Translations under genes and position numbers: made by a program
Notes under the pieces: model-generated
Told to the model about the DNA's origin: nothing
Databases searched by the model: none
The model's input: the letters and a program-made list of their open reading frames with translations, nothing else
Shown: positions 95 to 14,454 of the stretch, piece by piece
Position numbering within the stretch: the stretch's first letter is position 1
Layout of the letters: the number at the start of each line of letters is the position of its first letter
Source of the DNA: an uncultured virus (IMG/VR IMGVR_UViG_3300032897_000528)
Taxonomy: Duplodnaviria; Heunggongvirae; Uroviricota; Caudoviricetes
IMG/VR virus record: IMGVR_UViG_3300032897_000528
Length of the DNA: 20,000 nucleotides
Reading direction: 5' to 3' (one strand)

Positions 95-367
95 TCACTC
101 ACCTCCTCTCGGCGGTCTTCCCACCCGAGCCGGTATGACGCCTAGGTCGATCTGGAGCACCTGCACCCTCCTGTAGAGGTACGTCCGCGGCACCCCGAGA
201 GCCGCCGCGGCGCGAGTGCGCGAGCCCCCGCACGACTGCAGAGCCTGTATGATGAGTATCCGCTCGTGCAGCGCCATGATCTGGGGCAGAGTGCGAGGCG
301 GCTGCCGCTCTCCGCTTCTCTCGACGGAGGCGTCTCGCCGCCCCATCCTTTGGCTTGGCATTGGCAT
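95..367 (-). CDS. Stand-alone Fis/NtrC-type helix-turn-helix (HTH_8-like) DNA-binding protein
   Basis: ERILIIQALQSCGGSRTRAAAALGVPRTYLYRRVQVL matches the Fis/NtrC C-terminal pattern (E..I..AL....GN...AA..LGI.R.TLYR.L). A GGAGGT SD precedes the ATG, and the C-terminus has a GRPPR basic motif. Confidence 0.8.
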   Translation of the reverse strand: MPMPSQRMGRRDASVERSGERQPPRTLPQIMALHERILIIQALQSCGGSRTRAAAALGVPRTYLYRRVQVLQIDLGVIPARVGRPPRGGE

Positions 368-584
368 CTCGACCTCCTTTCAGAGTCTCCAAGTACCCTT
401 GATCCACCGCATGCTCATAGAGCTCCAGCTTCATCTCGTGCATGTATCCCAGCACCGACCCCCTGCGCTTGTACCGATGTTTCTTGGACACCTTCAAGTG
501 CTCGTAGGCGTCCCGAAATGCCATGTTGAGCCGGAACTCGTCATACCCGGGCAGCCCGTGCCGCCTGCCCCAGCTAGACGGCAC
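99..584 (-). CDS. Hypothetical basic protein; the N-terminal ~70 aa look coding and the frame continues over the whole Fis-like gene
   Basis: GTG start overlaps the end of the sigma gene, preceded by GGGAGGGG. It fills the 368-573 gap. The C-terminal half has shadow-frame-like composition. Confidence 0.5.
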   Translation of the reverse strand: MPSSWGRRHGLPGYDEFRLNMAFRDAYEHLKVSKKHRYKRRGSVLGYMHEMKLELYEHAVDQGYLETLKGGRDANAKPKDGAARRLRREKRRAAAASHSAPDHGAARADTHHTGSAVVRGLAHSRRGGSRGAADVPLQEGAGAPDRPRRHTGSGGKTAERR

Positions 585-1218
585 GCGAGCCCCTCCCGCA
601 TGCGGACTCGTCGCTCGTCGAGTGGAGATCTCCGCACTCCTCGCACCTGCAGAGGCTCGCGCGCAGAGCGCCTATGGCCTCGTTCTTGATCTGGCATACG
701 CGACTCTCCGTCAAGCCCAGCCTCCTGCCGATCGACTTGAGGGTGTTGTCTTCTCGGTAGTACCACGTGACGACGTCCCGGAGCCTGCCGGGCAGCCGCC
801 CGACGGCCTCCCACAGGAGGTCGCGGCTCTCGCGGTCGAGCATCTGGGACTCGATGCTGCCTTCACAGGCGATCTCCTCCAGGTCGTCGACCCTCATCTT
901 GCGCACTAAGCACCACGCCGGCACGGCCTCCTCGCCGCCGGCGGCGATGGCCTGCCGGCCGTCCCGCTTGACGTGGTCCATCGTTCGGAGCTCGTCGTAC
1001 ATGGCCCCGCGGACCCTGTGTACGGCGTACGCGCGCCAGAAGTCCATCACCTGGAGCTTCGCGGGGTCGTAGTTCCGCCACGCATCGAAGAGACCTGCCA
1101 TGCCCGCCGCCACGAGGTCGTCGAACATATCCCACTGGCCCGACCGGCGCAGTATCAGCCGAGCTAAGCACTCGACGCTGCGTCGCCGGTTCGACCACAC
1201 CTCTTCGAACGACTTCAT
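574..1218 (-). CDS. RNA polymerase sigma factor, FliA/WhiG (sigma-28)-like, with shortened region 3
   Basis: Region 2: DDLVAAGMAGLFDAWRNYDP...AYAVHRVRGAMYDELRTMDHV (cf. FliA RIRGAMLDELR..DW). Region 4: LPGRLRDVVTWYYREDNTLKSIGRRLGLTESRVCQI (cf. LTLKEIG.VLGVSESRVSQ). Confidence 0.9.
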   Translation of the reverse strand: MKSFEEVWSNRRRSVECLARLILRRSGQWDMFDDLVAAGMAGLFDAWRNYDPAKLQVMDFWRAYAVHRVRGAMYDELRTMDHVKRDGRQAIAAGGEEAVPAWCLVRKMRVDDLEEIACEGSIESQMLDRESRDLLWEAVGRLPGRLRDVVTWYYREDNTLKSIGRRLGLTESRVCQIKNEAIGALRASLCRCEECGDLHSTSDESACGRGSRAV

Positions 1219-1939: not shown

Positions 1940-4102
1940 TCACACGGCTGCCCTGAGCATGGCCTTGGTCACCGTGTCGAAGTTGCGCTCGATCTCAGCG
2001 TCGAAGTCGAAGCCCTCCGACATCCTGTCGCCCGAGCGCAGCTCGGCGACGGTCCACGGCCTTGTCTCCCCGTCCGGGTAGTGGAAACGCTTGGACAGCA
2101 TCTCAAAAGTCAGCGCCTTGATGACCAAGAGCTCGAACGGGCTCGTCGTGTACTGGCCGCCTACGAGAGTGCGATAGAGCTCCCGCATCCGAGTCATGCG
2201 CTGGACCCCGATGCGGTCGCCCGCGATGATCTTGTCGAGCTTGTCCCAGGCCGCCTGCCCCTGACCGAGGGAGAACCCCTTGGCCTTGGTTAGGCGCTTC
2301 TCCTTCCAGGTCCCGTCCCGCATGAGCTCGAAGCCCTCGCCCCGGTAGATCTTGGGAGCCACGAACTCGGCCCAGTCCATCTTCTTCTCGAGCTTGAGGG
2401 CGCCGAGCGTCTTGTCGTCAGTCGGCAGGGTAGCCTTGGTCGACACCGAGTCCGTGTCGAAGTAGTAGGGGGGCTTGTCCTGCCTGTAGCACTCCTTCGC
2501 GAAGTCGTAGAGCGTTCGGCGGGCGATGGCGGTGATGACGGAGGCCACGATCACGTGCCGGTGGGCAATCTTGGCCTCCTTGTCGGCCAACCAGACGCCC
2601 GGCTGGAGCATCTGCATGGTCGACCGGTCGATCTCGTCGGGATTGACGAGCATCTCCTGCTTGTGGGTCGACTCCGCGGCCTTGCCGTAGAGGGAGTTGA
2701 GCAGGTACTTGAGCACCAGCTTCCGAAAGTCCGTCGTGGAGGCGGCCCGGAGCGCGTAGATCTGCCTGGCGTACGCCGCGAAGTCGTCAAACGGCTCGAA
2801 GACATACACCTCGTGCACCTTGTGCAGGGTGGCCCCCTCGCGCAGCGCGAGCCTTATGTCCGTAGAGGTAAACCAACTCCGCCACCTCCCGGTCGGGAAG
2901 AAGACGCGGTTGTCCTTCCGATAGGGCAGCGGCGGCAGCACCATGTCCGGCACCTCGACGGTCGCGTCGACCAAGTAGATGCAGGAGTCCGAGTCGTCGT
3001 CCGGCAGCGTGGTCCGGTACTCGACGAGGTTGGCCGGCAGGGGATGGGTCATCGCGTACGGGAACGAGGAGTTGATGTCGTAGATCTGGAAGTCGCTCGC
3101 ATTGCGCGCCAGCACCTCGACCCTCGAAGCGAAGTAGCTCTCCTGGCTGATGCTGTTGAGCCTCTCGCTCGTAAAGATGTCCCGCTTGAGGAAGGCCCGC
3201 CGGAACAAGGTCATGGCGGTCGAGGCGATGGTCTGCTGGAGCTGCCCGCCGAGCGCGACTATCTCGGCCTCGAACTCCGCTATGGCCTTCCACAAGATCT
3301 CGCAGTCGAGCTTGTTGTACAAAGTCAAGATGTCGATTGGGGCCTCGGCATAGAAGGTGACCATCTCCGGCCGCGAGAGCGACTCGAAGTCCTTGACCTG
3401 CCGGCCAAACCGCTCGGACATCCAGGCCAGGGCCTTCGGGTCGTCGCCCTTCTTGATGCCGATAGCCTTACCGATGGAGGCGAGCTTGTCGCGCAGGAGC
3501 CAGTAGGAGTCGCAGAAGTGCCAGGCGTTCTTGCCGCTCACCACGTGGACGATGATGGCCGAGCTCCCGGAAAACGAGGCCTTGATCTTCCACATCCTGC
3601 CCCTGCCGTCCATACCCTGCTCCACTGTGGTCTTCTTGCTGCCGTCGGGTGAGTAGATCGCACTCGACCTGGTGGCGAGGAGGCTCTCGGCCCTCACCTG
3701 CTCCTTGATCTGGGTGAGCAGCTCGTCGAGCACGAACTGCATGTCGGCGAGGCCCCCGGCGTGGGCGAAAAACCACCAGCCGCGATACTCCCTGACAAGG
3801 AGTGCCTCTACGAGCTCGCGCACCGCCGGATAGCACCTATAGCTCGCGACCATGGTGGGCTCGTCCATATCCTCCTCGCCCTCCTCGGGCTGCTGGTCGT
3901 AGTACCCGCAGATGCGAGCCCGCAGGGCGGAGGTCATCCGCCGCGAGGGTGGGAGCGGCACGCGGAACCTCTCGCGAGTCCCGACGATCTCGACCTCCGT
4001 GTTGACGAGCTCGGGCAGGCTCTCCCCGGGCACCCACTCGAGGTCGAGGACGCCGAACCTGCGCAGCCTGCGCTCGGTCGTTATGGGGTTGAATACCGGC
4101 AC
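1940..4102 (-). CDS. polB: Family B DNA polymerase with protein-primed-type (DNA_pol_B_2-like) architecture and 3'-5' exonuclease domain
   Basis: ExoI GVLDLEW, ExoII FAHAGGLADMQF, CDSY, ExoIII YNKLDCEIL; motif A YDINSSFPYAM; motif B KYLLNSLYGK; ITAIAR; motif C YFDTDS; APKIY; KAKG. There is a ~100-aa TPR1-like insert between motifs A and B (LPYRKDNRVFFPTGRWRSWFTSTDI) and a TPR2-like insert between B and C. Confidence 0.92.
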   Translation of the reverse strand: MPVFNPITTERRLRRFGVLDLEWVPGESLPELVNTEVEIVGTRERFRVPLPPSRRMTSALRARICGYYDQQPEEGEEDMDEPTMVASYRCYPAVRELVEALLVREYRGWWFFAHAGGLADMQFVLDELLTQIKEQVRAESLLATRSSAIYSPDGSKKTTVEQGMDGRGRMWKIKASFSGSSAIIVHVVSGKNAWHFCDSYWLLRDKLASIGKAIGIKKGDDPKALAWMSERFGRQVKDFESLSRPEMVTFYAEAPIDILTLYNKLDCEILWKAIAEFEAEIVALGGQLQQTIASTAMTLFRRAFLKRDIFTSERLNSISQESYFASRVEVLARNASDFQIYDINSSFPYAMTHPLPANLVEYRTTLPDDDSDSCIYLVDATVEVPDMVLPPLPYRKDNRVFFPTGRWRSWFTSTDIRLALREGATLHKVHEVYVFEPFDDFAAYARQIYALRAASTTDFRKLVLKYLLNSLYGKAAESTHKQEMLVNPDEIDRSTMQMLQPGVWLADKEAKIAHRHVIVASVITAIARRTLYDFAKECYRQDKPPYYFDTDSVSTKATLPTDDKTLGALKLEKKMDWAEFVAPKIYRGEGFELMRDGTWKEKRLTKAKGFSLGQGQAAWDKLDKIIAGDRIGVQRMTRMRELYRTLVGGQYTTSPFELLVIKALTFEMLSKRFHYPDGETRPWTVAELRSGDRMSEGFDFDAEIERNFDTVTKAMLRAAV

Positions 4103-4184
4103 AATTGACCTACTGACAATCCACGCCTATCCAGCAGACGAGTGCTCTCGCTCTTTCGTCCATGCCTATCAGATTAACAACCCA

Positions 4185-4454
4185 TCAAGGTACAACTACG
4201 GACTTGACAGGGCCATATGCTGTCACCAAGTCTTGGCACACACATTGTAAACAGATCGCACCAGTGCCTGCAGTGACGGACTTTCCTTCCGCGTCAGTCC
4301 ATGAAAAACAAACTGGATCACTGCGTATATTACCGGTCTGTTTTGGAAACCTCCAAGTATGACCTCGCTTGCACGTGTGCAATTCCCATTCATACAAGAT
4401 GTTCAACGAAGCACTTGTAGAAATCTCAAAAACTTGTTTTTGTTCAGTTGTCAT
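4185..4454 (-). CDS. Small low-GC hypothetical protein, possibly metal-binding (CxxGH...CxxC)
   Basis: ATG at 4454 after GAGAGGAAAAGG; HTCKRGH and ICLQC motifs; visibly more AT-rich than its flanks. Confidence 0.6.
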   Translation of the reverse strand: MTTEQKQVFEISTSASLNILYEWELHTCKRGHTWRFPKQTGNIRSDPVCFSWTDAEGKSVTAGTGAICLQCVCQDLVTAYGPVKSVVVP

Positions 4455-4464
4455 CCTTTTCCTC

Positions 4465-4899
4465 TCAATCCTGCGGCACGACGATGAGAGCTCCCGTGAT
4501 GTTCCGAGCGCTGGCATTCGTGTTGGTCACACCCACCCGAATCTGATCGCCCCTCTTCACGGGTCGCATCCTCAGCGGGCAGGGATACTGGGGGAGGTAG
4601 TCCTCGACCTTAGCCTCCGGCCTGCACTGACGGAGCACCTCCTCCGTCAGCTCGTCCGTCGACGAGAACAGAGTGGCCGGCACGGGATCGTCAGCGTCGA
4701 GCAGCACGTGGTCCTCCCGGAGGGCGCCGCCCTCGCGAGTCACCGTCGAGATCTGGTAGACCAAGAAGTCTACCGCCACGTGCTCGGGGATGAACAGTCG
4801 CACGGGAACTACGTCTCGCTCAACCATGAAATGAAAGAGCATCGACGAGTTGCCACTCACGGCATGGACGCCCAGTCCCTTGACCAAGTACTTTTCCAT
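4465..4899 (-). CDS. Hypothetical beta-rich protein (possible jelly-roll-like beta-sandwich)
   Basis: Alternating hydrophobic strands (PVRLFIPEHVAVDFLVYQIST, VPATLFS, GDQIRVGVTN, ITGALIVV). The ATG at 4899 directly follows the stop of the upstream gene. Confidence 0.65.
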   Translation of the reverse strand: MEKYLVKGLGVHAVSGNSSMLFHFMVERDVVPVRLFIPEHVAVDFLVYQISTVTREGGALREDHVLLDADDPVPATLFSSTDELTEEVLRQCRPEAKVEDYLPQYPCPLRMRPVKRGDQIRVGVTNTNASARNITGALIVVPQD

Positions 4900-4901
4900 G
4901 C

Positions 4902-5096
4902 CTATCCGGTTGACGCTCCACTGAAGGCTCCGCCGTTCTTCAAAAGCCACTTGTGCAGACGTTTTTGTACGTGATCTCGTTCTGAATCACTCATGAATCC
5001 GTGGACATGCAAAGCACCAGCGCAAGCCAACATACGTTTGAGGCATGTCTCGGACTTCCAGGTTGGAAACTTGGCATAAGGCCGTAATTTCGACAT
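4902..5096 (-). CDS. Small basic hypothetical protein (lower GC)
   Basis: AGGAG SD before the ATG; fits the gap with tight spacing to the downstream gene. Confidence 0.6.
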   Translation of the reverse strand: MSKLRPYAKFPTWKSETCLKRMLACAGALHVHGFMSDSERDHVQKRLHKWLLKNGGAFSGASTG

Positions 5097-5187
5097 TTCA
5101 AACTCCTATCGAGTTAGTGGTGTGCGTGAACCGGATAAGCATGTACTTTTCCGATCCCATTTAAATTGAAAGTCGCTGAGCTGTCAG

Positions 5188-5676
5188 TCAACCTGCTGCT
5201 ATTCGATCAGTTGCCGTTCCCCACGGCACCCCGCCGACCAGCTCGGACATGATCGCCCTCGCCCTGGCCGCGCTCTGAGAGTCGTTCCACACCCTGCACC
5301 GACCGCTCGGGTGCGGCAGCCCGACCAGCCTCTTCCCCCGTACGACGGACCACTCGAATGGTAACGGTCCCTTGAAAACGCTCCTGACCTTAGACCCCAG
5401 CAGCACGAGCACCGAGTGGTGGGACCCCAGGCACTGCTGGGCCTCCTCCAGGGCGACCTCCTCCGACCACCTGCCCCGGCAGAGGTTGACCTTGTCCAGC
5501 AACCGAGCGTACTCGCAGTCTCGGAGTCCCAGTATCCTGCGAAGACGGTCTCCGCTCGACCCCCTGGGCATGTGGTAGAGGGCCAGGCGCGGGTCCGCGC
5601 CGAACGGGTTGAGCTCGCCCACTAATAGTACCCGACTGTGCTGATCGTGGAGATCGTCCAAACTATTGACACCCAT
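5188..5676 (-). CDS. Uracil-DNA glycosylase superfamily protein (compact, atypical)
   Basis: Motif A-like VLLVGELNP, SGDRLRRILGL, VNL, LVLLGSKV, and motif B LPHPSGR..W. Confidence 0.75.
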   Translation of the reverse strand: MGVNSLDDLHDQHSRVLLVGELNPFGADPRLALYHMPRGSSGDRLRRILGLRDCEYARLLDKVNLCRGRWSEEVALEEAQQCLGSHHSVLVLLGSKVRSVFKGPLPFEWSVVRGKRLVGLPHPSGRCRVWNDSQSAARARAIMSELVGGVPWGTATDRIAAG

Positions 5677-5682
5677 TGAACA

Positions 5683-5994
5683 TCACCAACTCAATAAAAC
5701 CACAGCGATCATGGCGCACACTATACCAATTGATCGACGAGCTGTTATTGGCTCTCCAAACCAACCTACCCCTAGTGCAACTAGTGCGACGGTCGAGAGC
5801 AGGATCCAGACTATTCCTGTCAGGTACAGACTTCTACCTATCCTCAGGGCCGGCAGCCAACTCGCGCCACTTAGGGCGTAACAGATCACAGAAACCCACG
5901 CCCAACTGATCCCGTCCCCCAGACTCCATTTCTTGGAGAAAAAATCACCCAGCCCGACTAGAAACCCCGACAGTATTAGCCAAAAATACATCAC
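5683..5994 (-). CDS. SMR/DMT-family four-helix membrane protein
   Basis: 103 aa with four hydrophobic helices; GVGWFGEPITARRSIGIVCAMIAVVLL matches the SMR C-terminal G..FGE.....GI.L...G pattern; low GC. Confidence 0.8.
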   Translation of the reverse strand: MMYFWLILSGFLVGLGDFFSKKWSLGDGISWAWVSVICYALSGASWLPALRIGRSLYLTGIVWILLSTVALVALGVGWFGEPITARRSIGIVCAMIAVVLLSW

Positions 5995-7064
5995 GTCTCA
6001 CCCTTCTCTCCCAGGTAGTGTGCCGGTCGCTTGCCGTCAGGGGTCCAGATGAAGCGCACCAGGAGCACGGTCGGCGGCAGACCCCGCTTCTCCATCAAGC
6101 TCTCGAGCATGGCCCGGAGGCCCACCTTGTAGTCGGTCAGGGCGTTCTGCACGGCGCCTCCACCCCAACCCTGAGTCGGGTACGTCCCGATCTGGAAGAG
6201 ACCTCGGTGCTTCTTGTAGAGATCTTCGATCTCTCCGACCTCAGCCTCGTTCTGCGGCCCAAACCGCACACCAAACGACACCCAGAAGGCTCCCCCCATG
6301 GGTGGTCTCGACGGGAAGTACTCGAAGTACCGGAACACATGGCTCAAGAACTCCACGATGAGAGTATGAGCGCCGGCCTCTCGCCAGATGTCAGGCAGAG
6401 ACTCGATCCGGAGCTCCCCGTCTACGGTCCCGTCAGCGTTGACGTACGTCTGCACACCCATCACGAGACCCGCACCCTCAGCAGCGATGCCGTCGAAGAG
6501 CGCCACGAGCCTCGTCTGCATCAAGATCTCCGCCTGCCTCGACCTCTCGGGCAGGAGGGGCAGCTCAGGCCTCCTGCGCTTGCGCTTGCGCTTCCCAGGC
6601 TTCTTAGCGACTGGCTTCCTCGCGACTGGCTTCCTCGCGGCAGGCTTCCTCGCGGCAGGCTTCCTCGCGGCAGGCTTCCTCGCGGCAGGCTTCCTCGTGG
6701 CAGGCTTCTTCGCGGCAGGCTTCTTCGCGGCAGGCTTCCTCGCGACGGGCTTCCTCGCGGCAGGCTTCCTCGAGACGGGCTTCCTCGCGACGGGCTTCCT
6801 CGCGGCAGGCTTCCTCGAGACGGGCTTCCTCGCGACGGGCTTCCTGGCAGCAGTCTTCTTTGCCTCTGGCTTCCTCGAGACGGACTTCTTGGCGGCAAAC
6901 TTCTTCGCAGCAGGCTTCTTGGCTGCTGACTTCCTCGCGGCGGGCTTCTTCGCTGCAGTCTTCTCAGCCTCTGACTTCCTCGCCACGGTCTCTATCTCAG
7001 CCAGCTTCTTGGCGAAGCGACCGAGCTCGTCGCGAGGCTGCCGCCTTCGTCCCCTGCTAGCCAC
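5991..7064 (-). CDS. Histone H1/Hc2/AlgP-like Lys/Arg/Ala/Pro repeat protein fused to an unknown ~190-aa C-terminal domain
   Basis: N-terminal RDELGRF motif, 25 K-x-x-x-K/R pentapeptides, KRKRKRRR, then a globular domain. The GTG at 7064 after GAGGA overlaps the end of the ATPase gene (the track start is TTG 7091). Confidence 0.8.
   Translation of the reverse strand: MASRGRRRQPRDELGRFAKKLAEIETVARKSEAEKTAAKKPAARKSAAKKPAAKKFAAKKSVSRKPEAKKTAARKPVARKPVSRKPAARKPVARKPVSRKPAARKPVARKPAAKKPAAKKPATRKPAARKPAARKPAARKPAARKPVARKPVAKKPGKRKRKRRRPELPLLPERSRQAEILMQTRLVALFDGIAAEGAGLVMGVQTYVNADGTVDGELRIESLPDIWREAGAHTLIVEFLSHVFRYFEYFPSRPPMGGAFWVSFGVRFGPQNEAEVGEIEDLYKKHRGLFQIGTYPTQGWGGGAVQNALTDYKVGLRAMLESLMEKRGLPPTVLLVRFIWTPDGKRPAHYLGEKGET
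6603..6977. repeat. Coding 15-bp tandem repeat (~25 units, consensus ggcttcctcgcggca) with a 45-bp higher-order unit
   Basis: Read directly from the sequence; encodes KPAAR/KPVAR/KPVSR/KPAAK, with KPVAR-KPVSR-KPAAR occurring twice in tandem. Confidence 0.95.
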
Positions 7065-8502
7065 TCTGGTCCTCGCTCGACTGGTCGGCAAGCGACTTCA
7101 ACAACAGCTCCCGCACGATGTCCCTCACAGGCGCCGGGATCTCAGACAAGATCGGATTGTCGCTCGCCCCCACGACCAATGTCTTGGATGAGTCGTACGT
7201 CGACTTGTGCCGAACCTTGAAGCGCCGGAACGCCGCGCGCTCACCACCTCTCAAGAAGTACGCCGTGCCCACTGGCAGCATGGGCAGCTGACTCAGGCAC
7301 GATACTCGCTGGCTCTCGCTGACCTTGTGGTCAAAGTGGGTGAGCCAATCTTCCACCGCTCGCAGATCTTGGGGCGCCGCCATCTGCAGGAGCCACAAGG
7401 CGTCCACCTGAGAGAGCACGTTCTTCGAGATCACGGCCGGGCGCAGGCTGATGAGCGTCACCCCGATGCCTCGCGACCTCCCCCGCATCACCATCCTCTC
7501 CACGTGACCGAGCGCCCTCTTCTGGTGCTTCGAGATCGCTCCCAGCCGCTGTGGAGCGAACTCGTCCGCCTCGTCTATCACGACGTGGATCGGGAAGTGC
7601 GGCAACCCTACGAGCCTCTCGCAGAAGGAGGCAACGACCTCGTGCTGCTCCGACGGAGCCAGCTCCGACAGGTCGACCACCACGGGCCTGGGCCTCACGG
7701 CGTTGACCACCTCCGCGATGCCAGCACCGCTGCCGGACGCGATCTTCTCGTGACCCCGCGGGCCTCCGAGCAAGATGGCCCCATAAGCTGATGGCTCGCC
7801 ACCTGCCGTCGAGAGCAGCCCCCACCAAACTCCTGTAGGGTCAAACACCACCACCGTCACCCCGTCGAGCCCCAAGAGCTCCTCCACGAGCACCATGCCG
7901 AGGTAGCTCTTGCCTGATCCCTTACGCGCCAAGATCGCCCCTGTCATGCTGGCGCTCCCGTCCGAGGGCAACATGAGCACCTCCGGAGGGTCTGAGAGCA
8001 CGAGCCCTCCGCCAGCCGACACCTCGCCGGCATCATCTCCCACATTGAAATCGAGCTCATCTTCCGAGATCTCGTCGTCTCTCGTCGCGACTGCTGGGAG
8101 CGCTCTCGACTCCACCGACTCGTCCAAATCCAGACCGTCGATCAGAGTGGCCAGATCTTGTCTTGCCTCGAGATCTCCGCGCCTCCTGAGCTTGAGATGC
8201 GACAGCGACCTCACGACGACGTACCCGGAGTCGAGCAGCTCGCCCAGCTCCGACACGAGCTCGACCGGACTGTCGACCTTTCGCCTCAGCTCCGACGCGT
8301 GGTGAAACTCACCGTCCCCGAGCACCTCGAGCAAGCGACTCTTCCTGGCAGACCCTCCGCGAGGGTACACGCCTGCCGTCCCTCCAGAATATATGCGAGC
8401 CGCGCTCCGCACGGCCTGCGGAGCCTGGGGCTCCTCGCGCTGTGGCGGCGCGAGGGGATAGCTCGACGGCGGCGGTATTCTTGGTCCTCGGCGCAGCAGC
8501 AC
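7057..8502 (-). CDS. HerA/FtsK-superfamily (DUF87/DUF853-like) P-loop ATPase with N-terminal winged-HTH
   Basis: Walker A ILARKGSGKSY, VVVFDPTG, Walker B HVVIDEADEFAP, arginine-finger region RGRSRGIG, ISLRPA. The N-terminal LLEVLGDGEFHHASEL resembles the BirA-type wHTH and is followed by an acidic linker. Confidence 0.85.
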   Translation of the reverse strand: MLLRRGPRIPPPSSYPLAPPQREEPQAPQAVRSAARIYSGGTAGVYPRGGSARKSRLLEVLGDGEFHHASELRRKVDSPVELVSELGELLDSGYVVVRSLSHLKLRRRGDLEARQDLATLIDGLDLDESVESRALPAVATRDDEISEDELDFNVGDDAGEVSAGGGLVLSDPPEVLMLPSDGSASMTGAILARKGSGKSYLGMVLVEELLGLDGVTVVVFDPTGVWWGLLSTAGGEPSAYGAILLGGPRGHEKIASGSGAGIAEVVNAVRPRPVVVDLSELAPSEQHEVVASFCERLVGLPHFPIHVVIDEADEFAPQRLGAISKHQKRALGHVERMVMRGRSRGIGVTLISLRPAVISKNVLSQVDALWLLQMAAPQDLRAVEDWLTHFDHKVSESQRVSCLSQLPMLPVGTAYFLRGGERAAFRRFKVRHKSTYDSSKTLVVGASDNPILSEIPAPVRDIVRELLLKSLADQSSEDQSG

Positions 8503-8511
8503 GAGTGACCC

Positions 8512-8871
8512 CTACTTCGCTGAGCCCTCTGCGCCATCGGCGCTCTCCGCGACTTCGTCTGCTCCTATCTTCTTGGGGCTGAGCGGCTCGTCGTGCGGCT
8601 TGCCCTCGTCGTCGAACCACAGGAGGCGGTGAGGGATCAGCCTGGCCATCGCGGTCAAGTCGACCATGAAGTCCGCCCTCCGAGTATCGCCCTGCTTGAG
8701 ATATGAGTTTATAGACTGCTCGAGCTGCTCGGTGTCGAACAAGAACTCCTCGCCGCTCGCGTCCGTGTACACATACACGTCCAGGTGGTCGCAGTACGCA
8801 ATCTTGGTTAACACCTTCGACCGCGCCGCTCCTGCCACTGCGTCCGTTGCTCGCTCGTCATCTGTAGACAT
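8512..8871 (-). CDS. Hypothetical protein
   Basis: ATG at 8871 after GGAGGA; coding-like composition; same strand as its neighbours. Confidence 0.7.
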   Translation of the reverse strand: MSTDDERATDAVAGAARSKVLTKIAYCDHLDVYVYTDASGEEFLFDTEQLEQSINSYLKQGDTRRADFMVDLTAMARLIPHRLLWFDDEGKPHDEPLSPKKIGADEVAESADGAEGSAK

Positions 8872-8917
8872 CAGTCGTCCTCCGCTGCGATTGTCAACCA
8901 AACAAAGATCGAGGTCG

Positions 8918-8970
8918 GGGCAAGGAGACAGTGCTCTCCTACCATCAAAAAATCGACCGTCTCCCCGCCC
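8918..8970 (-). terminator. 14-bp RNA hairpin (3 G-U pairs) followed by a U-rich run; candidate terminator/attenuator
   Basis: Minus-strand GGGCGGGGAGACGG pairs with CUGUCUCCUUGCCC, followed shortly by AUCUUUGUUUGGUUG. Confidence 0.45.
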
Positions 8971-8988
8971 TCCTCGTATAGTATCCGA

Positions 8989-9246
8989 CTACTGAGAGGA
9001 AGCCGCCTCGGGCAGAGCTCTCCTCACGCGGGGCCTGCGCCCCTTCTGCTGGTCTACGCCGCCTGAGCTGTCAGCGTCAGATGCCGCCGCCTCGAGGAGC
9101 ATGAGCGAGAGCTTCCTCACCTGCCTCGCCACCTTGTTCCGCCAGACGCTCGAACGGCGCGTGTCCTTGAGGACAGCGTCCCAGAGCCTCAGCAGATACG
9201 AGGCATCGCTCCGGTAGCTCGGTCGCATCTTTACAGGTCGGGACAT
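8989..9246 (-). CDS. Small basic hypothetical protein
   Basis: ATG 9 nt after the SSB stop; amphipathic helical pattern. Confidence 0.65.
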   Translation of the reverse strand: MSRPVKMRPSYRSDASYLLRLWDAVLKDTRRSSVWRNKVARQVRKLSLMLLEAAASDADSSGGVDQQKGRRPRVRRALPEAASSQ

Positions 9247-9255
9247 GACCTTGGC

Positions 9256-9783
9256 CTACGAGGCAGATGCTGCCTCGTCGCCCTCCGCCGAGCCATCGAA
9301 GTCAGCCGCATCGTCGTCGGCGACGGGCGCCTTGACCATCGCATGACGAGTGTCGAACGCGTGCATCGTCCTGCCTCCCGAGAGCTTGATCTTCTCGCGA
9401 GTGATCTGACCCCAGACCTCGTAGATGGCCCCTTGCTTGATGTCGGAGACGAGCGCCTCCCACCCCTTCGTCTTGGGCCCGTAGTTGACGTTGATGATCT
9501 CGCCGGGCTTCGCCTCGACCATCTTCGCGTCCTCGCCCCGGTCGACCCGGACCTGGCAGGACTGCTTGATCTCGACCTGGAAGAACTTCGCCGTGCCGTC
9601 AGCCCGCAGCTTCGACGGCGCCTCGAAGACGCCGATCAAGGTGCCGAAGAGCGTGTTGCCGATGAGCGAGTGGTCGAACCAGCCGGTCGCTATCGCGCTG
9701 CCCGACCGCTGGAAGCCTTCGGGCGGGGCAGCCATGGGACCTGTCGACTGTGACACCGCGGACGTTTCTCGATTTCGCGCCAT
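9256..9783 (-). CDS. Putative single-stranded DNA-binding protein (OB-fold-like with acidic tail)
   Basis: Beta-rich core with aromatic residues, acidic C-terminal tail DDDAADFDGSAEGDEAASAS, strong AGGAG SD, and first gene of the replication arm. Confidence 0.6.
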   Translation of the reverse strand: MARNRETSAVSQSTGPMAAPPEGFQRSGSAIATGWFDHSLIGNTLFGTLIGVFEAPSKLRADGTAKFFQVEIKQSCQVRVDRGEDAKMVEAKPGEIINVNYGPKTKGWEALVSDIKQGAIYEVWGQITREKIKLSGGRTMHAFDTRHAMVKAPVADDDAADFDGSAEGDEAASAS

Positions 9784-10699: not shown

Positions 10700-12724
10700 T
10701 TGAAGATCACGTTCTGGAAGGGAGTGTTCGTCGCCGACCACCAGCCCGGCGACGAGAAAGTCCTCAAGAAGGTCGGCTTCGTCGAGCACGAGCCCTCGCT
10801 GTGCGAGCCCTCTCGGTGCCGGGCCTGCCGAGCCAAGATAGGGCGCCGCTACTACTCGTCCAAGATCGAGCACGCGTCTCGACTCAAGCGCTACTGCACC
10901 GATCGCGCCCTCGAGGTGATGCGCGACCACCTGGCGAAGCTCGCCTCCTCGAGAGCGACCACCACGACGCTCTCCATACCAGCACCCCCCGGCGAGATGT
11001 ACCGACCCTTCCAGGCCGCCGGGATCGCCTACGCCGTCCAGCACAAAGACACCCTCATAGGCGACGACATGGGACTCGGCAAGACCGTCCAGGCCCTCGG
11101 GTTCGCCAACTACTCCCGGCCAGTGACCATCTTGGTGGTCGCCCCAGCTACCCTCGCCCTCAACTGGAAGCTCGAGGCCGAGAAGTGGCTCTGCCGCCGG
11201 CACGAGATAGTCATCCCGCAGAAGACCACCGACGTCCTGCCCCCGCCAGGCGAGAGACCTCTGCTCGTAATCACGAACTACGAGAAGATCTACGGGGTGA
11301 GCCGCGCGGTGACCACCTGCCCCTACTGCAGGTCCATCAATACGAGACCAAATCCCACTTGGACGTGCCTAGCCTGCTCTAGAACTTTCGCCGTCACCTG
11401 CCCGAGCTGCCAGTCTCCCTTGTCGATCTCCTCGCCAGCCAAGCTCCCAGCTACGACAAGCGAGCACGCGTGCCCGAGCTGCGGGCTCACGTTCGCCCCC
11501 ACCTGCCCTCACTGCCACTCACCAAACAAAATCTCGTCATCTCCACAAATATCCGGGCACACCTGCAGAGACTGCGAGCGCACCTTCACGAGCGACAAGC
11601 TGACCAAGGTGCTGTTCGACACCCCTCTGTCGAGGAGCCTGCGCAGACCCTGGGACCTCGGCATCTTCGACGAGGCCCACGCCCTCAAGAACCACGAGTC
11701 CTACCGCTCGAGAGCCGTGCTCGGAGAAGGAGGCCTCTACGACTGCTCGAGGCGGGCCCTCTTCCTGTCGGGCACCCCCCTCGAGCAGAGACCGATCGAG
11801 ATCTGGCCGATCGCCTCTCGACTCTGCCCGGCCAAGTTCGGCGACTGGTGGGACTTCGCGAGGAGATACTGCGCCCTCCACCGAGAGACCAGGGGCCGCA
11901 AGACCGTCTGGGTCGCCGACGGATCGTCCAACCACGCCGAGCTCCAGCAGCGACTGCGCACCTCCTTCATGATCAGGAGGACAAAAAATGACGTCCTCAA
12001 AGATCTCCCTCCCAAGTGTCGCCAAATGTTGGTACTCGACGACAGCGACGTCGACTGGGGCAAGTTCCCGGACCTCGTCCACTGGAAAGAGCACCTGAGC
12101 CAAGATTTCGACGATGCCCTCGCCCGACTGCTGTCGGCGAAGACCATGGACGACTACCGCAGGGCCGCCCGCAGGCTCGACGAGGTATCCGTCCCCTTCA
12201 CGGAGACGAGCGTGGTCCGGCACCAGGTCGGCCTCGCTAAGATAGACGCCTGCCTGCGCCTCACAGACGAGATGCTGGCATCCGGGCTCGACAGCCTGGC
12301 GATCTTCGCGCACCACAAAGACGTACTCGAGAAGATACACGACCACTACGGTGACGACTCATGCGTAATATACGGCGACACCCCCATGGACCAGCGAATC
12401 CCAATCGTGAAGCTGTTCCAGGAGGGTCAAAAGAAGATCTTCATAGGCGGGCTCAAGGCGGCCGGCGTGGGGCTCACCCTCACGAGGACGTCAAACCTCG
12501 TGTTCTACGAGAGCGACTGGAACCCGGGCACGGTCAGGCAGGCAGAAGACAGGTGCTGCCGCATCGGCCAGAAGAGGATGGTCAACATCACCCACCCGGT
12601 ACTGGACAAGAGCCTCGACGCGAACATGGTGAAGATGATCTTGGCCAAGCAGAACGTGGTCGACAAGATCTTGGACAACCCCACCGAGATACAGCTCAGG
12701 AAGGTGGGCCTGGAGAGCTGCTGA
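10700..12724 (+). CDS. SNF2-family (SMARCAL1/HARP-like) helicase/translocase with internal triple zinc-ribbon insertion
   Basis: Q motif RPFQ, I DDMGLGKT, Ia VVAPA, TNYE, II DEAH, III LSGTP, IRRTK, IV IFAHH, V AAGVGLTLT, DWNPG, VI QAEDRCCRIGQ. Confidence 0.93.
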   Translation: MKITFWKGVFVADHQPGDEKVLKKVGFVEHEPSLCEPSRCRACRAKIGRRYYSSKIEHASRLKRYCTDRALEVMRDHLAKLASSRATTTTLSIPAPPGEMYRPFQAAGIAYAVQHKDTLIGDDMGLGKTVQALGFANYSRPVTILVVAPATLALNWKLEAEKWLCRRHEIVIPQKTTDVLPPPGERPLLVITNYEKIYGVSRAVTTCPYCRSINTRPNPTWTCLACSRTFAVTCPSCQSPLSISSPAKLPATTSEHACPSCGLTFAPTCPHCHSPNKISSSPQISGHTCRDCERTFTSDKLTKVLFDTPLSRSLRRPWDLGIFDEAHALKNHESYRSRAVLGEGGLYDCSRRALFLSGTPLEQRPIEIWPIASRLCPAKFGDWWDFARRYCALHRETRGRKTVWVADGSSNHAELQQRLRTSFMIRRTKNDVLKDLPPKCRQMLVLDDSDVDWGKFPDLVHWKEHLSQDFDDALARLLSAKTMDDYRRAARRLDEVSVPFTETSVVRHQVGLAKIDACLRLTDEMLASGLDSLAIFAHHKDVLEKIHDHYGDDSCVIYGDTPMDQRIPIVKLFQEGQKKIFIGGLKAAGVGLTLTRTSNLVFYESDWNPGTVRQAEDRCCRIGQKRMVNITHPVLDKSLDANMVKMILAKQNVVDKILDNPTEIQLRKVGLESC

Positions 12725-13779
12725 CCACCGAGAGATGGGCAGCAGACGACGCCGCAAGATCTCCCATAGTGAGGCGAGCCGAACTGCTGCTCCAAGATCC
12801 TCACCTGCGCATAGAGAAGCGGAGGTCCGAGCTCAGGCAACAGCACGACGAGAGGATCTACGGCCCCCAAGGAGAGTCGCGATCGGAGATCATCACGAAG
12901 AGGGTCGAGCTCGTGCCCCTCGAACAGGTGCAGATCGACCCAAACTTCCCCAACATCCGCCTCGTGGCCACCGAGCAGGAGCTCGCCGAGCTCGCGGAGA
13001 GCATGAAATACGAGGGACTCAAGCAGCCCATCACCGTCCTCGCGTCGCCTCCTCCCGAGACGTGGCTGTGGCTGCGCGCCGGCTTCCGGCGCACTACCGC
13101 GGCCCGCCGGCTAGGCTGGCAGAAGATACCAGCCATCGTCCTGCCCCACGACACACCCGTCGTCGAAGAGTACTGGACCAACATCATAGAGAACTCCGCG
13201 CGGCAGCGACTCTCGACCTACGAGATCGCCCTCTCGGCGAAGACCATGCGCGACCGCTTCGGAGTTCGCCCGAGAGATTTTGCCCGCCGGGCAGGATATT
13301 CCGACTCCTACGTCGAAAATCTGCTGCGCTGCCTGGACCGACTGCCCGAAGAGATACTGCAGGAGTGGCGGAACCGAGCCCCGATCCCTCTCGACCTCTA
13401 CGTCCAGTGGTCAGCGCTGCGTCCCCCCGAGGCCGTCAAGATGATGCTCGCCTATTGCGGTCGCCACAAGAGCGTCACCAGCGGCTGGCAGCCTCCCCCC
13501 GAAGTCAAAGAGAAATACTTCCCCGCCAAGATGGCCTCGCAGCGAGGTCTCGCCCGCATGACCAAGCTGCGCTTCGCCCTCGAGGTTGCTCGCAAGCTGG
13601 ACCAGCCCACGCGCGAGATCTGCCTGCAGGTAGTCGACTTCTGCACTGGATCTCGCGACAACGTCCGCGACGTGTACGACGAGGGCAAGAAGCTGCGCAC
13701 CTACAAGAGCCGCACGAAAAATAGCGATCCCGAGTCCGCAGGAGCACCCGACCGAGAAGATGCCACCGCGAAAGATTGA
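12721..13779 (+). CDS. ParB/Spo0J-like protein (ParB N-terminal domain + HTH); start uncertain (CTG 12721 or GTG 12769)
   Basis: ELAESMKYEGLKQPITV, AGFRRTTA (GxRR), IIENSARQRLSTYEIA, and HTH FARRAGYSDSYVENLLR. The track start at 12361 overlaps the helicase and is not credible. Confidence 0.85.
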   Translation: MTTERWAADDAARSPIVRRAELLLQDPHLRIEKRRSELRQQHDERIYGPQGESRSEIITKRVELVPLEQVQIDPNFPNIRLVATEQELAELAESMKYEGLKQPITVLASPPPETWLWLRAGFRRTTAARRLGWQKIPAIVLPHDTPVVEEYWTNIIENSARQRLSTYEIALSAKTMRDRFGVRPRDFARRAGYSDSYVENLLRCLDRLPEEILQEWRNRAPIPLDLYVQWSALRPPEAVKMMLAYCGRHKSVTSGWQPPPEVKEKYFPAKMASQRGLARMTKLRFALEVARKLDQPTREICLQVVDFCTGSRDNVRDVYDEGKKLRTYKSRTKNSDPESAGAPDREDATAKD

Positions 13780-13820: not shown

Positions 13821-14033
13821 ATGCCGCACATGCACCTCATACAGACCAAGGTGTCGAAAGAGACCTTAAAGGCGCTGGACGCGCTGGCCCGGGCAGTTGG
13901 ACACAAGCGCGCCGGTTACCTGCGGCACCTCGTAGAGGTCCACGTGCGAGCGATCGAGCCTAAGCTCCTGGCGTCGCTGTCCAAGACGAGACCCGACGTG
14001 CTCTCCCCCAAAAGGAGGCCTCGTGGACAATAG
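13821..14033 (+). CDS. Ribbon-helix-helix (CopG/Arc/MetJ-like) DNA-binding protein
   Basis: HLIQTKVSKETLKALDALARAVGHKRAGYLRHLVEVHV follows the beta-strand/helix/G-x-x-R/helix RHH pattern. Confidence 0.7.
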   Translation: MPHMHLIQTKVSKETLKALDALARAVGHKRAGYLRHLVEVHVRAIEPKLLASLSKTRPDVLSPKRRPRGQ

Positions 14034-14454
14034 TCGGCAGAAGATAGTGGAGAAGTACGCGAAGCTCATGAAGCTCGCTCGCGGCGCAGCCAACCAGCAC
14101 GAGTCTGAGAGCGCCCTAAAAGCCGCCCGCAAGCTCGCCTCCGACCACGGGCTGACGGAAACTGAGATCCAGTCTGGCCAGATGAGCGCAGCCTTCGACG
14201 ACCTGCTCGACATGGTAAAGAAGATCGTGACAGAGCACCCAGCCATACCAGTCGGACTGTTCGACACCGAGTCCATCGTCACCGACGTGCTCGGCAAGAT
14301 CAAGACCATCAACGACGTCGAGAAGGCGAAGAAGCTGCGCCAGGCAGCCATGATAGTGCGCACTGCCTCGCTCGTGGCGGGCGACAACCGGACGCTGCGA
14401 GAGATCAAGTCAGCCCTCGACACCGTCATCAAGAACCACGAGATCACAATCTGA
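14023..14454 (+). CDS. DUF2786-like N-terminal domain protein
   Basis: KIVEKYAKLMKLARGAANQHESESALKAARKLASDHGL matches the DUF2786 pattern (KI.KLL.LA....N.HEA..A...A..LM..YGL); AGGAGG SD. Confidence 0.7.
   Translation: MDNSRQKIVEKYAKLMKLARGAANQHESESALKAARKLASDHGLTETEIQSGQMSAAFDDLLDMVKKIVTEHPAIPVGLFDTESIVTDVLGKIKTINDVEKAKKLRQAAMIVRTASLVAGDNRTLREIKSALDTVIKNHEITI

Follow-up and report, generated by a model that had tools for sequence, protein, structure and literature searches.

How would a large phage-like genome be copied when its replication operon encodes a DNA polymerase of a type published for small, protein-primed replicons? The question arises from the window, by which is meant the whole 20,000-nt stretch analyzed here (uncultured virus, IMG/VR record IMGVR_UViG_3300032897_000528). 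The window, with a G+C content of 55-66%, contained a minus-strand operon (9783 to 1940) and, starting at about 9800, a plus-strand block that diverges from it. A first-pass annotation had taken the operon for the replication module of a protein-primed-type family B DNA polymerase (PolB), together with a protein that binds single-stranded DNA (SSB), a HerA/FtsK ATPase, a histone-like protein and a uracil-DNA glycosylase (UDG), and the minus strand from 1940 to 9783 contained every gene that it named. A phi29-type family B enzyme of 720 aa was encoded at 1940-4102 (minus strand), and this polymerase of the protein-primed type was located in a genome several times larger than any known for the type. 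That a large linear phage-like double-stranded DNA genome is copied here from its ends with a protein primer, in the manner of phi29, is in our estimation moderately probable.

The polymerase matched PF03175 (E 7e-29, 101.5 bits, cut-off 25.8), which was the sole family reported by Pfam; there was no match to PF00136 in the same database. Its translation contained ExoI as DLE, the strings HAGGLADMQF and YNKLD, motif A as YDINSSFPY, motif B as LNSLYGK, motif C as YFDTDS, in agreement with the DTDS motif C noticed in the first-pass annotation, and KIY. Motifs ExoI-III, A, B, C and KxY were complete, and the catalytic residues were invariant in 29 close and 40 wider aligned homologues. The hallmark of piPolB enzymes is SxTTDG replacing YxDTDS and KTRG replacing KxY, according to the portion available of PMC5695915. 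A piPolB identity was rejected, as YFDTDS and KIY were present, and both invariant in the family, and SxTTDG and KTRG were absent.

In a sequence search of the PDB, phi29 polymerase was the sole match to the window polymerase, with an alignment covering motif B, the following stretch and motif C. An AlphaFold2 model was obtained with a mean predicted local distance difference test (pLDDT) of 66, and was poor at residues 471-517 and 632-673. In a Foldseek search with this model, phi29 polymerase made up the nine best matches (E 1.7e-18 to 1.4e-16), and the first RNA-primed PolB came at E 1.5e-9. With VIA-align, phi29 polymerase gave Z 17.0-17.9 over 499-510 of about 570 residues and was spanned at residues 5-575 (top match Z 17.9, root-mean-square deviation 4.1, 499 aligned residues, chain residues 6-575), vs Z ≤ 11.6 and 286-399 aligned residues for RNA-primed PolBs. 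The polymerase was thus placed apart from the RNA-primed PolBs by Pfam, where PF03175 stood alone, by Foldseek and by VIA-align. Of the TPR1- and TPR2-like inserts that had been claimed earlier, the former was found in position with a well-modeled structure, and an insert at the position of the latter was present but poorly modeled. A beta-rich insert at residues 357-437, between motif A and the fingers, occupied the TPR1 position (block pLDDT 84-94). An insert of about 40 aa at the TPR2 position (476-516) aligned by sequence with the phi29 stretch after motif B, which we take to be TPR2 (phi29 residues 398-420), and residues 471-517 had a pLDDT < 50.

A neighbor-joining tree of 31 sequences split the family and its relatives from six named protein-primed polymerases (MetSV, Bam35, an autolykivirus, a PRD1-like phage, GC1 and phi29) in 100% of 50 bootstraps, with no piPolB, casposon, polinton, adenovirus or RNA-primed sequences in the tree. 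Identity of the polymerase to the six references was 21-29%. The closest of 91 matched phage records was MetSV, with a PolB 26-28% identical, and the 20 plasmid matches to PolB were all Bacillus tectivirus-like replicons, with no pipolin-type plasmid among them; no deposited phage or plasmid was found to carry the module. Megablast with the whole window returned no match.

Homologues of the polymerase were numerous. A word-indexed search gave 971, and the 120 matches listed were at least 59% identical. An exhaustive search gave 5,421 clusters at E ≤ 0.001 and 370 clusters at E ≤ 1e-30 (clusters at 50% identity), many of them of proteins of about 590 aa that were 40-50% identical. Contigs bearing PolB homologues were mostly high-GC and reached 282,438 bp. 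Among the 120 listed homologues, 21 were 990-1161 aa long and 4 of these had an intein domain (PF14890); the polymerase versions of two metagenome loci (L-numbers hereafter), L043 and L049, were 1114 aa and 998 aa long. Scans for related loci with single proteins found none, and alignment-based scans found three IMG/VR records and one genome contig. The three related records, named G002, G003 and G004, had 194,181 bp (CheckV 88% complete, syntenic, polymerase 62-64% identical), 37,993 bp, and 202,518 bp (CheckV 94% complete, polymerase 36-37% identical), respectively. Over 14 kb, the window was 99.4-99.7% identical to a strain on a metagenome contig of 150,998 bp. The genome of the window phage was therefore large, with a strain of at least 151 kb and a syntenic relative of 194 kb at an estimated completeness of 88%; the earlier expectation of a genome much larger than the classic replicons with such polymerases was borne out by that strain and by the relatives of 194,181 and 202,518 bp.

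The same gene order was found in the window, in G002, in G003 and in five metagenome loci, so that synteny held within IMG/VR. On one strand the module had ParB and SNF2, and on the other the SSB-like gene, genes for an 85-aa and a 129-aa protein, the HerA ATPase, a basic protein, a MazG-like pyrophosphatase (absent from the window), a variable stretch, the polymerase, a 90-aa helix-turn-helix (HTH) protein and shared open reading frames (ORFs). The synteny of SNF2 was kept in G002, G003, L041, L043 and L046, and ParB adjoined SNF2 in relatives. The UDG-like gene occurred in 2 of 82 loci, one of them being the same phage, and the sigma factor of the window in 1 of 82; both were accessory genes outside the conserved module.

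No primase family was detected among the 36 window ORFs that were scanned against Pfam, PHROGs and NCBIfam, as the first-pass annotation had stated, and the same scan detected no clamp, ligase or topoisomerase. In G002, neither 150 ORFs compared with Pfam nor 126 ORFs, in part the same ones, compared with PHROGs included a primase, clamp, clamp loader, ligase or topoisomerase.

Upstream of the polymerase and on the same strand was the gene of a two-part basic protein of 366 aa (5991-7091, minus strand), in agreement with the basic repeat or histone-like protein described before. Its N-terminal half consisted of (A/V)ARKP-type repeats encoded by a tandem array of a 15-nt (5-aa) unit, with 25 in-register copies at 6491-7059, and had HC2-type, histone H1-like, low-complexity matches in Pfam and NCBIfam. 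In the near-identical strain L039 the length of the array deviated from that in the window by 90 nt (six units), so the basic arm varied in length between strains. The C-terminal domain of about 190 aa (residues 176-366, encoded at 5994-6566) was conserved in an alignment of 15 relatives, in which D45, D49, G122, W174 and P181 of the domain were invariant and Y117 was near-invariant, and it was also present in relatives with a PolB only about 38-48% identical. Upstream sequence of 3 kb or more was present in 24 loci, and in 14 of them a hidden Markov model (HMM) detected the domain on the same strand, upstream of PolB (22 of 82 loci overall). The gap between domain and polymerase was 233 nt in L060, and the genes were directly adjacent in L050 and L052. 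Phi29, Bam35 and a PRD1-like phage have their terminal-protein gene at this upstream position, where an autolykivirus has a gene annotated as a putative terminal protein. The new finding is that in distant relatives the domain accompanies the polymerase, in many cases as its immediate upstream neighbor. There were 61 database homologues of the domain, none informatively named, and several of them and of the polymerase homologues were on contigs of matching sizes (282,438, 128,897 and 94,246 bp). A PDB sequence search gave no match to the domain below E 0.45, and the Atlas had no usable relative of it.

Prediction of a complex between the polymerase and the C-terminal domain scored 0.72, with a best score of 0.00 in three controls; the mark for this score was reached by 116 of 157 solved complexes and by 2 of 215 mismatched pairs. 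The scores of the three runs taken singly were 0.72, 0.27 and 0.78, with a partner pLDDT of at least 79. The predicted interface paired PolB residues 487-502 and 507 (TPR2-like insert), 644-651 (thumb) and 136, 170 and 172 with residues 35-56 of the domain, which are its most conserved motif. The priming domain of the phi29 terminal protein presumably contacts TPR2 and thumb as well (2EX3). The C-terminal domain is thus predicted by the model to bind the TPR2/thumb region of the polymerase, and as it also travels with the polymerase, it is the best candidate for a terminal protein or at least for a polymerase-bound partner.

In the 11 close-family contigs of at least 20 kb, the sequence upstream of PolB extended 0-26 kb (22.0, 26.0, 1.2, 16.0, 2.0, 14.8, 24.8, 0, 22.9, 19.7 and 14.8 kb) and the sequence downstream up to 127 and 172 kb. 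In relatives the module was 15-26 kb from a contig end. Since upstream sequence never exceeded 26 kb, the module would lie near one genome end, as in phi29, Bam35 and PRD1. The left end of G002 (L010:1-126) was an exact 126-nt inverted copy of 192,184-192,309 (L019:12184-12309), 1.87 kb inside the right end. In an independent unitig set of the probable source run both arms of G002 entered the 126-nt repeat, and the terminal unitig, at about 28x depth, ended within 2 nt of the right end of G002. This dead end makes it likely that G002 has defined physical ends. None of the explanations tested for the asymmetric 126-nt repeat fitted fully; an invertible segment in a circular map of G002 was unlikely, as the unitig was unbroken through the repeat boundary.

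The sign of the GC skew in G002 followed the arm and not the strand of the gene. Skew was positive in the left arm for 93% of 94 plus-strand and 88% of 25 minus-strand genes, and in the right arm for 15% of 101 plus-strand and 24% of 63 minus-strand genes. Along the genome it fell linearly, with +0.19 at one end, -0.20 at the other and the zero crossing at 92.6 kb, and was fitted better by a line (R2 0.94, Akaike information criterion (AIC) -332.6) than by the best step model (R2 0.73, AIC -259.7). By our own derivation, a gradient of this shape would be predicted by the symmetric scheme of phi29, in which the time spent single-stranded falls linearly from end to center. All 18 tested genes of the window had negative skew on either strand, which is consistent with the window lying in one arm. 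The skew of the PolB gene itself was about zero (-0.005) vs -0.07 to -0.25 in its neighbors, and its orthologue in G002 shared the skew of its arm (+0.106).

Taken together, the class of the polymerase, the missing primase, the synteny and the predicted binding of the partner, the position of the module and the one skew gradient make protein priming the best-supported explanation. The window would then belong to a large linear phage-like double-stranded DNA genome and lie about 20 kb from one of its ends, with the minus-strand operon from 9783 to 1940 as the conserved replication module of the element. The polymerase would start at both genome ends on a protein primer and each strand would be copied continuously by strand displacement, so that no primase, clamp or lagging-strand machinery would be needed. 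The C-terminal domain of the basic protein would be the terminal protein or a polymerase-bound partner, and its basic repeat arm would bind DNA. The mode of priming, the start of replication at the ends and what the ATPase and the SSB-like protein do are our inferences.

Several observations weigh against protein priming from the ends. The extreme ends of G002 as assembled were not alike and a terminal inverted repeat (TIR) was not confirmed, the 126-nt repeat being terminal on one side only. A long TIR collapsed in the assembly was rejected on depth, which was 28.8 in the terminal 2.0-kb unitig vs 27.9 in the unique arm and therefore that of single-copy sequence. No TIR or direct terminal repeat was found in 78 other metagenome loci, G003 and G004, most of which were fragments. 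In the phi29, Bam35 and PRD1-like phage controls there was no skew gradient and skew tracked gene orientation, so the gradient of G002 was without empirical precedent among the genomes tested. The skew of G004 was step-like and one-sided, and the sign of the G002 skew would also be expected of a circular replicon with its origin at the contig junction. The C-terminal domain was not detected by HMM in 10 of the 24 loci with enough upstream sequence, among them G004. One of the three complex runs scored only 0.27, and contact agreement between runs was at least 0%. The TPR2 region and the thumb, on which the partner was predicted to dock, were modeled at pLDDT < 50. The predicted complex had no contacts to motifs A or C, with the partner away from the active site; this would fit a terminal protein docked away from its priming position, or a tethering factor.

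A tether is what the partner would be if the phi29-like fold worked without a protein primer. Primers would then come from host enzymes, from undetected phage enzymes or from recombination, the genome would be circularized with an internal or junction origin, the basic protein would be a tether or processivity factor and HerA the helicase. This is a real possibility, though we hold it to be rather unlikely. The predicted placement of the partner on TPR2, thumb and exonuclease domain, and not on the catalytic site, suits it, and so do the unconfirmed TIR and the same skew sign from a circular replicon with an origin near the contig junction. ParB was about 10 kb from the contig end of G002, as partition genes are near origins, and G002 had a Dda/RecD-like superfamily 1 (SF1) helicase and a stand-alone PolB-type exonuclease. 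Protein priming was moreover published only for genomes < 50 kb in the part available of PMC4889955. On the other hand, the scanned window and G002 ORFs contained no primase, clamp, clamp loader or ligase, and the G002 skew was a gradient and not the two-level step expected of theta replication. In a second assembly of the same run, sequence at about 28x depth came to a dead end at the right terminus of G002, and a search for terminal redundancy was negative. The signature motifs of piPolB were absent, and the partner gene was in the position of a terminal-protein gene. That the polymerase and its neighbors are a captured small self-replicating element, tectivirus-like or pipolin-like, which rides as a passenger and does not replicate the large genome, is very improbable. 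The closest named relatives of both polymerase and ATPase are in tectivirus-class genomes of 10-17 kb, the skew of the PolB gene was near zero (-0.005), unlike that of its window neighbors, and a variable low-GC island adjoined it; however, relatives with polymerases 60-75% identical had the same gene order and distance from the contig end, and in G002 the polymerase gene had the skew of its arm (+0.106). The scanned G002 ORFs did not include a second replicative polymerase, and neither capsid nor integrase genes of a small element flanked PolB in the window (Pfam, PHROGs). Inteins, which favor essential, conserved genes, were present in 4 of the 120 listed polymerase homologues.

Whether the element is a virus was weighed on the rest of its genome. 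No terminase, portal or capsid family was detected in the scanned G002 ORFs or in 112 ORFs of G004, where divergent versions are possible, nor in G003, and in six-frame Pfam searches Terminase_6N (PF03237), Phage_capsid (PF05065), P3_N (PF09018) and Capsid_NCLDV (PF04451) had matches in none of the three records each. These absences, together with ParB and with two contigs of window sequence in a 1.9-Mb genome bin (G001), would suit a large linear plasmid or other extrachromosomal element with a terminal protein. A non-viral element of this sort is nevertheless improbable, given that G002, G003 and G004 are listed as viral in IMG/VR with CheckV completeness, and that G002 had the virion structural protein family phrog_1645 (E 3.2e-93), which is common to cyanophages and HMO-2011, and an SLT lysin directly after a 1404-aa ORF, as well as a homologue of an ejected-protein family. 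G004 encoded endolysins and a collagen-like tail fibre. The G001 bin was small and high-GC, and the polymerase occurred in only 1 of 61 genomes related to it, so its contigs look like binned mobile DNA and the bin is no reliable evidence of a host. A 6-kb contig of a relative (L005) was binned in a Nitrospirota metagenome-assembled genome (MAG), and neither binning was good host evidence. The sigma-70 factor of the window, and the RNA polymerase alpha C-terminal domain and the SLT lysin of G002, indicate a bacterial host. The lack of terminase, portal and HK97 capsid in two near-complete genomes, and the fact that both signature genes are, among named viruses, nearest to those of MetSV and tectiviruses, also led us to consider that the elements of 150-280 kb would be giant bacterial viruses out of the tectivirus-like world (Varidnaviria) and not tailed phages. 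They would have kept a protein-primed polymerase, a terminal protein of new fold and a packaging ATPase of the FtsK/HerA type, with a linear genome of about 200 kb copied end to end by strand displacement. We regard such an origin as unlikely. Double jelly-roll capsids usually need structure comparison to be detected.

A capsid candidate at G002 176,257-177,345, the best-conserved late protein, common to G004 and with 51 homologues, was folded and rejected: the model had an alpha/beta domain and a 100-residue helix, and was not a capsid. It had no BFVD match at E ≤ 0.001. A related-locus scan with an alignment of the late protein found G002 alone, and in tblastn searches of the phage records neither this protein nor a 666-aa late protein had a match.

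If copying does start from protein-primed ends, the family would depart from all known systems in size. Protein-primed PolBs are confined to genomes < 50 kb in the parts available of PMC4889955, PMC5695915 and PMC11348598, and ANME-1 chaacviruses with a protein-primed PolB have genomes of 10-11 kb (PMC9894754). The PolB-bearing contigs here, of 150,998, 194,181 and up to 282,438 bp, were above this size of about 50 kb. In a full-text literature search of main texts, no description of a large phage with a phi29-type polymerase was found. Neither protein-primed replication nor terminal protein occurs in the available text of a comparative overview of 224 jumbo-phage genomes (PMC7824862) or of a 2026 review (PMC13282480). 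The < 50-kb limit has served as an argument that RNA-primed replisomes with helicase, primase and clamp are required for large genomes, and a widespread clade would break it if protein priming is true here. If genomes of 150-280 kb carry only a phi29-type polymerase, one polymerase would copy up to about 200 kb by strand displacement. These polymerases could also be of practical interest, as strand-displacing enzymes that are very processive. With the clade comes a new polymerase-partner domain as well, possibly a terminal protein with a new fold.

The likeness to phi29 (Salasmaviridae; p2, p3, p5, p6) extended over the full length of the polymerase fold, including the TPR1 and TPR2 positions, to the grouping of the replication genes in a co-oriented early operon close to a genome end, where the genes for a DNA-binding protein, an SSB candidate and a polymerase partner are upstream of that for the polymerase, and to the lack of primase and clamp. 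Unlike in phi29, the genome was about 8-10 times larger (at least 151-194 kb vs 19.3 kb), the polymerase was about 21% identical and in a separate clade, the candidate partner had no sequence likeness to p3 and had a long basic repeat arm, an FtsK/HerA ATPase was in the operon, and no TIR of at least 6 bp was shown. The closest named polymerases were those of the Tectiviridae class (MetSV, Bam35, PRD1, GC1, autolykiviruses), with that of MetSV 26-29% identical as the best of 91 phage records; the closest named ATPase was the MetSV gene annotated phrog_2666, and in this class, too, the terminal-protein gene is directly upstream of the polymerase gene. However, these genomes have 10-17 kb, their double jelly-roll capsid family was not detected here (PF09018 and PF04451, none of the three records), the ATPase here was twice as long and in the replication operon rather than in a late operon, and the clade was split from the six named protein-primed polymerases in all 50 neighbor-joining bootstraps. 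The piPolBs of pipolins belong to the same broad PF03175-type group and have TPR1 and TPR2, as described in the portion available of PMC5695915, but have SxTTDG and KTRG where YFDTDS and KIY were found here. Jumbo or huge tailed phages are similar in genome size and accessory load to G002, and differ in that their terminase, portal and HK97 capsid families were not detected here. Borgs of Methanoperedens are also large linear elements with a PolB gene near one end and an SNF2 helicase; from what is available of PMC12660748, their PolBs group with processive and not protein-primed PolBs, and their hosts are archaeal, whereas the pointers here are bacterial.

The second signature gene of the operon encoded an FtsK/HerA-type ATPase of 481 aa (7057-8502, minus strand) with an N-terminal extension of about 180 aa. 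The HerA/FtsK assignment made before was supported by PF01935 (33.4 bits, cut-off 23.2) and by Walker A GSGKS and Walker B DEADE; a winged HTH that had been proposed for the N-terminus was detected by no model. The core matched phrog_2666 (E 7.9e-17), the PHROG that also annotates the MetSV ATPase labeled 'terminase large subunit', and the product of Bam35 ORF14 bears the same label. The ATPase was 26% identical to that of MetSV over 211 aa (E 2e-13) and matched Bam35 ORF14 over 47 aa (E 3e-5). HerA models of PADLOC and NCBIfam matched the core only. The gene was kept in the close family (11 loci) and was not found in G004 nor in several distant loci. Packaging, a fork helicase and a translocase were considered as roles, and homology of the core to the MetSV ATPase is shown by the sequence comparison. 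A reading of HerA and SNF2 as a defense system was rejected, as PADLOC gave generic matches to HerA and to a ZorD/DpdE-type core and no partner proteins.

The first gene of the operon (9256-9783, minus strand; 175 aa) was the SSB-like candidate, kept in 8 loci. The gene and its acidic C-terminal tail were as described before, and there was no Pfam, PHROG or NCBIfam match to support the name. Its template modeling (TM) score against the PF00436 SSB was 0.32, below the bar of the Atlas, and its Atlas relatives were viral hypothetical proteins, so that the SSB call is weak. Between it and the ATPase were a small basic 85-aa protein (8989-9246, minus strand), with phmmer matches in 11 loci including the distant L058, L061, L064 and L099, and an acidic 129-aa protein (8512-8901, minus strand; synteny-map family F9), kept in the close family with phmmer matches in 5 loci and with no match in Pfam, PHROGs or NCBIfam.

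Of the genes between the basic protein and the polymerase, the one named UDG (5188-5676, minus strand; 162 aa) was present as stated and its product had the strings GELNPFG and HPSG, which we take to resemble motifs of the UDG superfamily. The match to PF03167 (E 0.0021, 18.6 bits) was under the cut-off of 24.3, phrog_12275 was matched with E 1.7e-14, and the gene was a strain-specific accessory; on these sequence matches, the UDG call is weak. Next to it was another accessory gene (5683-5994, minus strand) for a hydrophobic SMR/ArnF-like membrane protein of 103 aa, with weak NCBIfam matches (E 2.6e-4) and present in 2 loci. A low-GC variable island with three small ORFs (4185-5096, minus strand; GC 0.55-0.57 vs about 0.64 in the flanks) separated the conserved module from PolB, and apart from one weak homologue none of the three ORFs had a homologue outside the same phage. 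The assembly of G001 broke at this island (window 4100-5200; contigs C81 and C49, with a 141-nt overlap at 5324-5464), which suggests that the island just upstream of the polymerase is a strain-variable hotspot. A stretch of about 55 nt at 5087-5141, containing the ribosome-binding site and start of a small ORF, recurred with 86% identity at G001:C81:3252-3307, about 10 kb away, and may be a repeated leader or promoter element.

Downstream of PolB the window had two unknown ORFs, a sigma factor and the 90-aa HTH protein. The sigma factor (574-1218, minus strand) was of the FliA/WhiG type of the sigma-70 family (PF04545, PF04542, TIGR02479 E 1.2e-30). The 90-aa protein (95-367, minus strand) was of the Fis type, with phmmer matches in 14 loci and weak matches to the C-terminal HTH of sigma-54 activators; its gene was directly downstream of PolB in G002, and three extra genes were between both in the window phage. 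The plus strand of the window encoded an SNF2-family helicase with a zinc ribbon, divergent from the operon (10700-12724; PF00176, PF00271), a ParB-like protein (longest ORF 12361-13779; PF02195, TIGR00180 E 3.7e-22), a DUF2786 protein (14023-14454; PF10979) kept in the left-arm module of relatives with homologues in G002 and G003, and many small ORFs of no known family. Family models thus confirmed the sigma factor, SNF2 and ParB of the first-pass annotation. The longest ParB ORF overlapped the end of SNF2 by 364 nt, and the true start of ParB is probably internal to it, downstream of 12724. No ParA was seen beside ParB in the window or in G002. The window had no tRNAs, and promoter-like and terminator-like sites were in no excess over chance.

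The cargo of G002 included RtcB, Ro60/TROVE, an RNA ligase, ThyX, nucleotide-metabolism enzymes, sigma-like factors and many glycosyltransferases. The RNA-repair set of Ro60/TROVE, RtcB and RNA ligase was at 93,857-95,539, 48,805-49,950 and 31,889-32,920, respectively, and RtcB was also present in G004. A 902-aa protein of G002 with major-vault-protein shoulder and repeat domains (60,838-63,546), near an SPFH/Band-7 protein (56,602-57,849), is unusual cargo for a phage-like genome. The central part of G004 (L028-L032) contained dispersed repeats of about 90-145 nt with 89-94% identity, for example at 58.9, 97.6, 101.0, 102.3, 111.3, 112.1 and 122.5 kb.

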